Part shown: positions 19,928 to 22,900 of the stretch, piece after piece | Numbering within the stretch: position 1 is the stretch's first letter | How the letters are laid out: each line of letters begins with the position of its first letter | Made by a program: the position numbers | Assembly: GCF_003790525.1 (NCBI RefSeq) | Contig: NZ_CP033635.1 | DNA length: 64,000 nt | DNA from: Escherichia coli | Lineage (GTDB): Bacteria; Pseudomonadota; Gammaproteobacteria; Enterobacterales; Enterobacteriaceae | Reading direction: 5' to 3' (one strand)

Positions 19928-22900
19928 GTATTTAATTACTGCCCATAAGAATAAAAGCCGCTGGCGGATTATTTCTTTATTACCCGGATGCGGTCACAAG
20001 CCCACACATCGTCAACTACCTGCCGGTAATATTAACTGTCAGAAGAACGCATACATCCGGATGTTTACAGAGTCGCGCGCCTGGTCACAGGTGACAACAG
20101 AAGTATGCCATACTAAAGGAGTAAACGGCGGGTCACTGGTGATCAAACACCTGCATCGTGTGTTGCTGCCACTGCCCTCAGGTGACAGAGGCAGCATCTT
20201 TACGTATTATAATGCGTTATATCGGGTTTGTTGTTATCAGAACTGATAGTTCAGCGACATCCAGTAATTTCTCTCAGGTATCACATAACCCGTTGTCGAT
20301 GCCCCCGTCTGGAAGTAATCACCCGCATAAAGCGTACCACTGCCGGCACGATACAGACTTACGTCACTGTAATCCTTGTTAAGCACATTATTCACCGCTG
20401 CATTCAGCATCAGTGCATCCGTCACTTTCCACGACATGCCCGCATCCAGTACCGTCCAGGCTTTCAGATATTCACCTTTCTCATCATACACTTTCTTCTG
20501 TACAGCTGAGAGTGACGAATAATTCTGGGTGAAACGTGGCGTTTTCCCGCGATAACGGGCACCCAGCCATGATGTCACCTCTTCAGTAATCTGCCAGTTC
20601 AGTTTCGCATTCACCATATGCTCAGGGGTGTAACTCAGTGGTGCACCTTTATTATCCCCATCCCGTTGTTCACTCTGCGTCCAGGTATAATTCAGAGACA
20701 GAGTCACATCCTCTGACAACAGAGGCAGTGTGCCGGCAAATTCCACGCCCTGAGTCCTAGCCTTTCCGCTGTTTGTGTAGCTGCGGGTATTATCATCAAT
20801 GGAATAAGATACGATCTTGTTGGAGAATTCTGTCATAAAGCCCGTGATATTGGCGTTCAGACCGGCATGATTATCGTAATACACGCCCGCTTCATAACTG
20901 ACACTCTCCTCCGGCTTCAGGTCCGGGTTACCGAGAAGATTCGTACGCCCCTGACCGGACACACCGCTGATCCCCTTATGTAACTGCCCCATGCTGGGCG
21001 CCTTATATCCCGTGGTCACCCCACCTTTCAGCGTCCACGCATCAGTCACATCCCAGACCATATATGCCCGGGGACTGAAGTGTCCTCCGAACACCTCATA
21101 GCGTTCATAGCGGCTACCCGCAGTCAGTGCAAATGCATCCGTGATATACCACTCATCCTCAACAAATGCCGACCAGCTTTTCTGACGGAAGGTTTCACCA
21201 GTACTGGCGAGAACAACCCCGTCTTTCATGGAGGAGTTCTGATACTCACCACCGACGGTAACCTTGTGTGATTCCCCCAGAGGTGCAAACAGTAATGAGC
21301 TCAGGATAAGATTCGACTCCTTAAGCTCCCTCGGCTGGCCGGCAAGCCCCCATTTATCACGCTGCAGTACGCTACGTACAAGCTGACGGCCTTTATTTTC
21401 CGTCTCATTCCAGTTCAGGGATGACTTCCAGGCTCCGAAGGTGAATGTATGATCATAGCCTGCTGAAATTTTATTACGCTCATAGCGCAGGGTGCGATCA
21501 TAACCGCCCGTCAGACTGCCCAGCTGGCCATCTCGGTTATCATAACGCTGCCGGGCGATATCCATATCAATCCAGAGTACATCCTTGTCCGTCGCTTTCC
21601 AGTCAAGACGACCACCTGCATTATAATTCTGTGATTCCGTGGGATAAGGGATACGCGTAGCTGAGGTGTCGCTCAGTGATGTGACCGATGAGCCCTGACG
21701 CTGCTGTGTGCTGCCACGTACCTGAAGGCTGAGTGAATCATCCACAAGGGGACCGCTGCTCCAGAAATTAAACTGGCTGCTGTTCCCCCATTTGTTACTT
21801 TCCTGCAGGTTCAGCCCGGCATTAACCGAAGAGCGCCATTTGTCTGCATTCTTTTTGGTGATGATATTCACCACGCCCCCCATGGCATCAGAGCCGTACA
21901 GAGTGGACATGGGGCCCCTGATAATCTCAATACGTTCGATGGCGGCCAGAGGTGGCATAAAACCCGTATTCATGGCAGCATAACCGTTTGGGGTTACGTC
22001 ACTGCTCCCGCCCTGACGGACACCATCGATCAGTATCAGCGTATAACTGGCAGGCATTCCGCGGATGCTGATTTCCAGCCCACCTGTTTTACCCGTACCG
22101 CTTTCAACATCCACCCCCTCTACGGATCTCAGTGCCTCCCCCAGATCATGATACTGGCTGGATCGCAAATCCTCCTGGCTGATCACTGAAACACTCGCAG
22201 CTGCACTGGTTAATTTTTTTTCATAGCCAGACGCCGTGACTACCATCACATCTTCCGCAGCCATACTGCTGACTGAAAACCCGAGACAAGGGATGGCTAC
22301 TGAAGCCAGAGTGGTTACTCGCATATCTTCTCTCCGATTATATTAATCAGAGAGAAGATAAACAAACGCAAGAGATAATGAGAATGATTTGCTTTTGGTT
22401 TTTACATAAAAAAGCAAAAAATTACAAAATATTACATAAGGTTCTACTATACCCCGAATTTCAGTTGAGGACGTTCTTTTCTCTAGGGGAAAGTAACGGA
22501 TAGCAATCGTTGACGATCCATATCGGATTTTTGCACTATGGGTATTTATCCAATCTTTATCAGTTTCTTGTCCTTGGATATGTTAATCATACACTATCGG
22601 ATATTTCGTACATCAGACAGGTGACTATAATTAATAATGAGGAGTTTTATGGACAATAGAACAATTACTCTGCAGGAATTACTCGAGTACATGTCAATGC
22701 TTCGAGACGACATGAATGCTCTCACGGTTGCATTTTCATATCTGGCTTCATCGCTTCCTAAGGAACAGATGATACAAATACTGGCATTCATTCATTTTGA
22801 ATCAAATAATTCCAGATGGTCTTCAGAACAGCAGAAATCTTTCAAATGGCTAGCATCACTACTGGAGGGCTGTTATACAGTTCACACAAACATTTTTGAT

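Follow-up and report, generated by a model that had tools for sequence, protein, structure and literature searches.

Genes and features of the window

The window analyzed here is a 64-kb stretch of Escherichia coli DNA carrying iha and, at its far end, iutA for the ferric aerobactin receptor; coordinates of all features are collected in Table 1. As the first-pass annotation had stated, iha is intact and iutA lies at the other window end, its boundary at 62105 being confirmed. The separation of about 40 kb by IS-rich DNA was also found as described, since iha and iutA are 39,780 bp apart and 60% (0.60) of this interval consists of transposase, IS or intron sequence. The lack of sat was borne out too, because a tblastn search of the 64-kb window with Sat as query gave nothing better than E=0.12 and no sat remnant. 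In related genomes iucDCBA and shiF lie beyond iutA, and iucABCD and shiF are present in SFE8.

Table 1. Positions of iha, its upstream elements and the surrounding island features in the window
Feature	Position	Strand	Remarks
ICE-protein pseudogenes (TIGR03756/TraU-like, TIGR03757/DUF1525)	16676..18042	-	flank the 3' side of iha; annotation mapped from SFE8
IS3-family (IS911-like) insertion, 1258 bp	18670..19927	+	3-bp duplication GTA; 310 bp downstream of iha stop
iha CDS	20237..22324	-	ATG start; 695 aa; uninterrupted ORF
iha 5' region common with classic iha	22325..22411	-	homology to classic iha ends at 22411
Shine-Dalgarno (SD) GGAGAG	22335-22330	-	inferred element
Candidate -10 TATCTT	22360-22355	-	by inspection
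Fur box GATAATGAGAATGATTTGC	22374..22392	.	50-68 bp upstream of iha ATG; single occurrence
Candidate -10 CATTAT	22380-22375	-	inside Fur box; conserved; by inspection
IS-rich spacer with few intact cargo genes	22925..55940	.	annotation mapped from SFE8
amiC-like amidase	30949-32208		intact, in spacer
IS66-family insertion, 2699 bp	39555-42253		private to window genome; 8-bp duplication GATGAAAA
ibrB and ibrA	43096-44951		intact, in spacer
sodC	52159-52683		intact, in spacer
Fur-like box, 14/19	55951-55969		upstream of sitA
sitABCD iron/manganese ABC transporter	56045..59515	+	intact ORFs
iutA (ferric aerobactin receptor)	62105..64000	-	5' end lost at window edge

The IS911-like insertion has no counterpart in SFE8, SMS-3-5, L011 or 30 listed genomes, matches to which begin at 19928, and judging from these alignments it is private to the window genome among those compared. 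In L011, uninterrupted homologues of the ICE-protein pseudogenes adjoin an iha variant of 95% amino acid identity.

The protein was compared with the Iha family model NCBIfam NF010012 / PRK13486 (bifunctional siderophore receptor/adhesin), an equivalog profile on which it scores 1538.7 bits vs a cutoff of 924, residues 1-695 covering profile positions 1-696 of 696, i.e. the full length. Pfam assigns a Plug domain to residues 39-151 and a TonB_dep_Rec_b-barrel domain to residues 221-647. In the TonB-box region, EDVMVVTASG corresponds to EDVMIVSASG in classic Iha, the C-terminal YQF is common to both proteins in the alignment, and an N-terminal signal peptide is present as judged by inspection only. 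Among solved structures none of Iha itself was found, and the closest was Cir (PDB 2HDF/2HDI; E 7e-79). The gene is 100% identical to that of SFE8 across 2364 nt, and its product is the same protein as in SFE8 and SMS-3-5, WP_001266790.1. This exact protein is recorded as Iha on 1000 or more public contigs. Catecholate siderophore uptake and an adherence phenotype have been reported in the literature for classic Iha; the window gene looks functional and codes for a member of the family, a putative TonB-dependent catecholate-siderophore receptor and adhesin.

The same island in other genomes

The window is collinear with SFE8 save for three IS differences (four collinear segments, together 61.9 kb, of 99.95-99.97% identity), and identity to SMS-3-5 is 99.6-99.9% over the part compared. 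The block is present in about 50-59 complete E. coli genomes; 59 have the window iha allele, and in 49 the sit-iutA segment (window 52000-64000) is found in one place over at least 80% of its length. The iha-iutA spacing was tabulated in 19 of the approximately 59 carrier genomes, and it ranges from 23.0 to 47.4 kb with a median of 42.7 kb, the window having 44.1 kb in that comparison; for SMS-3-5 it is 45.0 kb vs 43.8 kb. Island carriers include poultry, swine and human isolates. A literature search on the iha-sit-iuc island of SMS-3-5 type found nothing specific to the island.

Since a scan of the window found no tRNA gene, the integration site was taken from SFE8 and SMS-3-5. In SFE8, ynjA and ynjB border the island, and the left flank of the window suggests the same location there; in SMS-3-5 it is at pheV (tRNA-Phe). 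The integrases of SFE8 and SMS-3-5 are only 84% identical in nucleotide sequence, whereas the shared block is 99.6-99.9% identical. The shared unit is a block, 49 kb or longer, with the order ICE remnants, iha, IS graveyard, amiC, ibrAB, sodC, sitABCD and iutA-iuc, in which strain-specific changes are small IS gains and losses only, those of the window being one IS911-like and one IS66-family insertion. An iha-sit-iuc block of about 49 kb behind two integrases and at two sites makes a neat case of module exchange between islands.

Because the same block is found in about 50-59 genomes, the spacing of about 40 kb is read as inherited island architecture. We consider it very probable that the divergent iha of the window, preceded by a Fur box, belongs to a separate island common to many genomes, the layout of which includes the distance to iutA. 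The island would then not descend from the iha-sat-iutA island seen in CFT073 or ST131. The window iutA is 97.9% identical to that of EC958 across 1926 nt, and the SMS-3-5 island uses pheV, the tRNA of the CFT073 island; the aerobactin part of both islands may thus have come from a common ancestor, with iha replaced or relocated later.

Divergence of the iha allele and origin of the iha-iutA distance

Compared with the classic iha of O157 and ST131, the window gene has 85.7% nucleotide and 90.2% amino acid identity, with dS of 0.615 and dN/dS of 0.084. The divergence is spread evenly along the gene, and a mosaic or recombinant iha was rejected since divergence runs along its whole length. The low dN/dS suggests purifying selection on the window iha. 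Chromosomal representatives are about 85-86% identical to it, and the sampled plasmid-borne copies 84.7-84.8%. The described subtypes, iha-EDL933, iha-LAA/LPA and iha-pO113, have 91-94% mutual similarity (Colello et al., 2019, PMC6920203). Since its nucleotide identity to both chromosomal and plasmid-borne copies is lower, the window iha branches outside these three; on sequence grounds it is a deep-branching, divergent allele and not the common one. Another 20 genomes fall in the 90-95% iha identity class.

Window Iha could differ from classic Iha in antigenicity, ligand or adhesion specificity. If the divergent allele had shifted in specificity, whether for its ligand, in adhesion or as a colicin/phage receptor, and were no longer an Iha equivalent, what is annotated or concluded for classic Iha would not transfer to it. 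The 68 amino acid differences, the local maxima of dN near residues 211-240, 361-420 and 481-540, and the position outside the described subtypes would fit such a shift, but the dN/dS of the whole gene, the full-length equivalog match far over the cutoff, and the conservation of the TonB-box region, plug and C-terminal YQF make it unlikely.

The first-pass annotation had attributed the distance from iha to its usual neighbors to IS-mediated rearrangement or deletion. In full, such an origin would start from an island of CFT073/ST131 type with iha-sat-iutA, in which IS insertions, inversions and deletions moved iha by 40 kb and removed sat. Several observations point in that direction, namely the spacer with its 60% of IS/transposase sequence, an IS content visibly varying among strains, the high identity of iutA to that of EC958, the pheV location of the SMS-3-5 version, and the presence near iha, in either island, of a degenerate IS3-family copy with 94% identity. 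However, rearrangement cannot produce the 14% nucleotide difference from the sat-adjoining allele (dS 0.615), while iutA is 98% identical. Around iha, homology of the two contexts extends for only about 90 bp on the upstream and about 10 bp on the downstream side, no Sat remnant was found in the window, and iha is inverted relative to iutA when compared with EC958, with which iha and the shared IS3 copy are non-collinear. The spacing is moreover kept in many genomes and at two integration sites, the outcome that the first-pass annotation itself had named as speaking against rearrangement. The claim is thus not supported, and we regard such an origin as quite improbable. The IS3-family copy was rejected as a synteny remnant, since it and iha do not lie in collinear order in the two islands. 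The contiguous iha-sat-iutA layout is itself found in only 591 of the 1583 iha-positive complete genomes, and the O157, LAA and pO113 contexts of iha are without it.

The findings have practical consequences. The annotation label "iha" spans alleles down to 86% nucleotide identity, each bound to a different island, and synteny expectations based on CFT073 or ST131 do not transfer between iha alleles. Widely used iha PCR primers mismatch the window allele, 3' terminal base included; the Johnson primers match classic iha perfectly. Because of the mismatches at the 3' end, PCR surveys may miss this allele, and PCR-based virulence typing may have under-counted it. For basic biology the consequence is little, as gene, regulation and island type are all familiar: iha, its control by Fur and mosaic IS-rich pathogenicity islands are textbook features of ExPEC and STEC. 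We put forward only tentatively that the window iha is an unrecognized fourth lineage, associated with ICE remnants and about 0.6 in dS from the EDL933 subtype, which moves together with sitABCD and the aerobactin operon as one "iron module", 49 kb or longer, exchanged between islands that differ in integrase and attachment site.

Fur box of iha and comparison with known systems

A Fur box with 15/19 matches before iha had been noted in the first-pass annotation, and this exact 19-mer was found once in the window. GATAATGAGAATGATTTGC agrees with the Fur consensus GATAATGATAATCATTATC at 15/19 positions (14/19 on the gene strand), and it is the single best match to the consensus in the 64 kb. 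The corresponding boxes score 13/19 in classic iha and 15/19 both in an E. coli variant of 76% identity and in the Citrobacter freundii orthologue, and are located at -62 to -72, that of C. freundii being at -72. The box thus exists and is conserved, its position being kept across Iha orthologues of 73-100% protein identity. A scan of 19900-22800 for the sigma-70 consensus gave no match of at least 9/12 on the iha strand, and a terminator scan of the same range found none. The candidate promoter TTCTCA-N18-TATCTT, obtained by inspection of alignments, scores 8/12. Since the consensus scan gave no promoter on the iha strand, we infer the promoter position from such candidates.

Classic iha (c3610 of CFT073) is listed in the direct Fur regulon, its Fur ChIP peak having a height of 649; the supplementary data give 181 for c3610, which is interpreted here as the fold change in a fur mutant (PMC7157518). 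From this analogy and the conserved box, we infer Fur binding and a regulatory effect also for the window allele, in agreement with the iron-repressed expression proposed earlier. Fe2+-Fur probably binds the 19-bp box, which would overlap the iha core promoter; bound Fur would block RNA polymerase, and iha would be on only in iron limitation, like classic iha. In a Markov-1 simulation, 0.17 sites of at least 15/19 are expected per window and one or more occur in 14% of the simulated windows. That the 19-mer is a chance match and window iha not iron-regulated is nevertheless highly improbable, for although this simulated frequency, the AT-rich region and the lack of a consensus sigma-70 promoter adjoining the box would allow it, the box is within the conserved segment of about 90 bp upstream of iha itself, four diverged orthologue lineages, Citrobacter included, have a Fur-like box at this position, and even the weaker 13/19 box region of classic iha, a direct regulon member, has a Fur ChIP peak (PMC7157518).

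Among known islands, PAI-CFT073-pheV and the corresponding region of EC958 resemble the window as IS-rich islands with both iha and the aerobactin operon; the aerobactin type matches, the iutA genes being nearly identical, and the SMS-3-5 relative of the window island shares the pheV site with PAI-CFT073-pheV. The arrangement differs: in EC958, iha is followed by sat at 8.5 kb and then by iutA, which is 13.3 kb from iha and convergent with it, whereas in the window iha and iutA are co-oriented and 39.8 kb apart, with sitABCD, sodC, ibrAB and amiC between them and no sat.

Classic Iha, both of O157:H7 (EDL933/Xuzhou21) and of UPEC (CFT073/EC958), shares the NF010012 model with window Iha and is within one residue of it in length; both have a Plug and a 22-strand-type barrel, and PGAP gives them one name. 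The classic gene has a homologous promoter segment of about 90 bp with the Fur box at the matching position, but its consensus match is 13/19 vs 15/19 in the window, and its flanking DNA is unrelated to that of the window iha. Cir (PDB 2HDF/2HDI) is a TonB-dependent catecholate-type receptor like window Iha, and so is the chromosomal Iha orthologue of C. freundii P0017 (73% amino acid identity), the gene of which, unlike the window iha, is in no island and has housekeeping-type neighbors (a peptide ABC transporter and an EAL protein). The subtypes of Colello et al. (2019, PMC6920203) are likewise allelic iha lineages, each bound to its own mobile element; their elements are TAI, LAA and pO113, whereas that of the window allele is the iha-sit-iuc island.

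Iha gene and its allele

As the first-pass annotation had stated, iha is intact, and its features and those of the surrounding DNA are collected in the table. The protein matches NCBIfam equivalog NF010012 end to end (1538.7 bits, cutoff 924), carries Pfam Plug and TonB-dependent-receptor barrel domains, and has Cir as its closest solved structure. Its exact sequence has been found in at least 1000 public contigs, all named Iha, and PGAP names the identical protein elsewhere "bifunctional siderophore receptor/adhesin Iha". Protein searches gave a graded family composed of a 95% variant, classic clusters at 89-91%, a 76% E. 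coli variant and chromosomal Citrobacter orthologues at ~73%.

Features of the window around iha and iutA
Feature	Position	Strand	Remarks
Cytochrome b562 gene	about 2618-3007	minus	
Fur-like site, 14/19	3024-3042		17-35 bp upstream of cytochrome b562 gene start, near island left end
Decayed iron-type ABC transporter	~8000-12521		pseudogenes for solute-binding protein, permease, ATPase
PhoX-family phosphatase	10542-12521	minus	intact, 659 aa; adjoins decayed ABC transporter
ICE conjugation pseudogenes	16676-18042		TIGR03756/TraU-like and TIGR03757/DUF1525; abut iha 3' side
IS3-family (IS911-like) insertion	18670-19927		1258 bp; ends TGTAGTGG...CCACTACA; 3-bp target duplication GTA
iha ORF	20237-22324	minus	695 codons, ATG start, uninterrupted
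Shine-Dalgarno GGAGAG	6-11 nt upstream of iha ATG	minus	
Fur box of iha	22374-22392		50-68 bp upstream of start codon; 19-mer unique in window
90-aa hypothetical ORF	22649-22921	plus	divergent from iha
IS66-family element	39555-42253		2699 bp; 8-bp duplication GATGAAAA at 39547-39554 and 42254-42261
sodC CDS	52159-52683	minus	
Palindromic Fur-like site, 14/19	52212-52230	both	within 3' part of sodC CDS
Fur-like site, 14/19	55951-55969		directly upstream of sitA
iutA	62105-64000	minus	cut by window end

This is not the common allele (classic iha, as in O157:H7 EDL933, CFT073 and EC958). Only 59 of the 1583 complete E. coli genomes with iha match it at 99% or more, and 1536 records from complete E. 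coli genomes are 80-90% identical. Twenty E. coli records form an intermediate class (90-95% in the iha region), which may be the 95%-aa variant (P0003, on contig L011). Against EC958 (ST131) and an O157:H7 strain, the identity is 85.7% for nucleotides and 90.1-90.2% for amino acids, with dS of 0.615, dN of 0.052 and dN/dS of 0.084. Since the differences are distributed over the full gene length, this iha belongs to an old, selectively maintained lineage; a mosaic or decaying copy is ruled out by the same distribution. The gene encodes an intact receptor of the Iha family on which purifying selection acts, and by analogy with classic Iha it would function in catecholate uptake and adhesion. 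Functional divergence from classic Iha is disfavoured by the dN/dS ratio and by the full-length equivalog match.

Homology to classic iha extends from 22411 (~20 bp upstream of the Fur box) to ~10 bp beyond the stop, and therefore the conserved unit is exactly the promoter plus the gene. The 90-aa ORF, to which no Pfam match was found, is kept in SFE8, SMS-3-5 (WP_000370415.1) and L011; the neighbour upstream of classic iha is a different one. In L011 (5304-6670), homologues of the TraU/DUF1525 conjugation pseudogenes are present as uninterrupted ORFs, and these genes beside iha hint at its arrival as ICE cargo. We infer that classic iha and this lineage go back to separate acquisitions, the latter perhaps in that form.

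The widely used Johnson primers, in the sequences we take them to have, show three (IHA-F) and two (IHA-R) mismatches to the window allele, the 3'-terminal base included in each, and the "general" primers of PMC6920203 show two (F) and one (R). Both sets match classic iha perfectly. Given the mismatches, window-type iha may be under-detected in PCR surveys. Since the published subtypes EDL933, LAA/LPA and pO113 are 91-94% similar among themselves (PMC6920203), the window allele branches outside them.

Fur box and promoter of iha

The 19-mer pointed out in the first-pass annotation occurs once and does match the Fur consensus GATAATGATAATCATTATC at 15/19 (14/19 on the gene strand), which is the top match across the 64-kb window. 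In first-order Markov simulations, each window was expected to hold 0.17 sites of at least 15/19, and one or more turned up anywhere in 14% of the simulated windows, so that a chance match in the ~100 bp before iha is improbable. The Fur-like site upstream of sitA gives a built-in positive control. When orthologous upstream regions were compared, a Fur-like box was found at the equivalent position in four iha lineages: 15/19 at -68 relative to ATG in the window allele and its 95% relative, 13/19 at -70 in classic iha, 15/19 at -62 in the 76% E. coli variant, and 15/19 at -72 in the C. freundii orthologue. The Fur box of the window iha is thus conserved, and this cross-lineage conservation contradicts a chance match.

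For classic iha, a Fur ChIP peak of height 649 and a supplementary value of 181, read as fold change in a fur mutant, have been reported (PMC7157518). Considering these data together with the conservation of the box, Fur would very likely bind here and repress the window allele in response to iron. A simple sigma-70 scan found no promoter on the iha strand. Candidate core elements recognized by inspection are a conserved CATTAT hexamer inside the Fur box and TTCTCA-N18-TATCTT, and with either one Fur would lie on the polymerase site.

About 1.9 Fur-like sites of at least 14/19 are expected by chance per window. The site upstream of the cytochrome b562 gene may be nothing, and that inside sodC is probably fortuitous.

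Interval between iha and iutA

The separation of about 40 kb of IS-rich DNA noted previously, with iutA at the far end and no sat-like gene, was reproduced. The interval is 39,780 bp, of which annotations assign 60% to transposase, IS and group-II-intron CDS and 19% to intact cargo (the 90-aa hypothetical, an amiC-like amidase, ibrBA, sodC and sitABCD). A tblastn search of the window with Sat of EC958 (1295 aa) gave a best E of 0.12, and the window contains no ORF longer than 695 aa.

The window and E. coli SFE8 are collinear and 99.95-99.97% identical over 61.9 kb, except for three IS differences. The IS911-like insertion, situated 310 bp beyond the stop codon of iha, is a strain-specific marker because it is absent in SFE8, SMS-3-5, L011 and all 30 genomes listed. 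The IS66-family element, whose host site is an older IS66 tnpC pseudogene, is absent from that site in SFE8 and thus private to the window in this comparison; SMS-3-5 has a 98.5% identical copy elsewhere, between the ICE remnants and iha. The third is an IS3-family element private to SFE8. IS activity is real but incremental, explaining kilobase-scale spacing differences between strains and not the iha-iutA separation.

Island architecture and origin

The SFE8 island (NZ_CP051219.1 2263566-2359772) is about 96 kb long and lies between ynjB and ynjA, with its integrase adjoining ynjA. The SMS-3-5 island (NC_010498.1 from 3197159) lies at tRNA-Phe beside yqgA (pheV); its block, running from the ICE remnants across iha and beyond, is 99.6-99.9% identical, and its iha-iutA span is 45.0 kb. 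The two integrases are only 84% identical in nucleotides and the integrase-proximal (left) arms differ. The presence of one iha-sit-iuc block at two chromosomal sites with different integrases points to an exchange of modules between islands. As a proxy for spacing, the distance equivalent to 19928-64000 (44.1 kb) was obtained in 19 other genomes of the ~59 carriers; the values lay between 23.0 and 47.4 kb (median 42.7 kb), and 16 of the 19 fell within 38-47.5 kb. Co-residence of iha, sitABCD and the aerobactin operon, divided by IS debris, is a conserved island architecture; it follows that iha...sit...iutA is passed on, by descent or by transfer, as one unit spanning at least 49 kb and older than the window's strain. 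The iucD genes of SFE8 (L004 14155-15488) and EC958 (L002 37740-39073), outside the window, are flagged "frameshifted" by PGAP, a flag that may be an artefact of the annotation model and need not mean that two pseudogenes arose independently.

In EC958, iha is 8.5 kb from sat, followed by iutA-iucDCBA, and is convergent to them at 13.3 kb from iutA. This layout is contiguous in 591 complete genomes, roughly 37% of those with iha. In O157, iha adjoins ter genes, and in LEE-negative STEC it is found in LAA or on pO113 (PMC6920203). The sat and aerobactin neighbours regarded as usual in the first-pass annotation are thus the norm for a single allele in a single island type only.

Besides iha and iutA (the latter 97.9% identical), the window and EC958 share only non-collinear IS fragments. 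There is a small probability that the aerobactin part alone was derived from an iha-sat-iutA island, for which the iutA identity (98%) and the pheV location in SMS-3-5 speak. Several observations contradict derivation of the whole island by IS-mediated rearrangement, as first proposed: the iha allele is divergent, its orientation to iutA is the reverse of that in EC958, the window holds no sat remnant, and the spacing recurs in the 19 genomes and SMS-3-5. Such recurrence of the spacing in other islands is the very outcome that the first-pass annotation had named as speaking against a rearrangement. The iha gene, its regulation and its island are all already present in annotated public genomes, among them the long-standing reference genome SMS-3-5, and represent no departure from known kinds.
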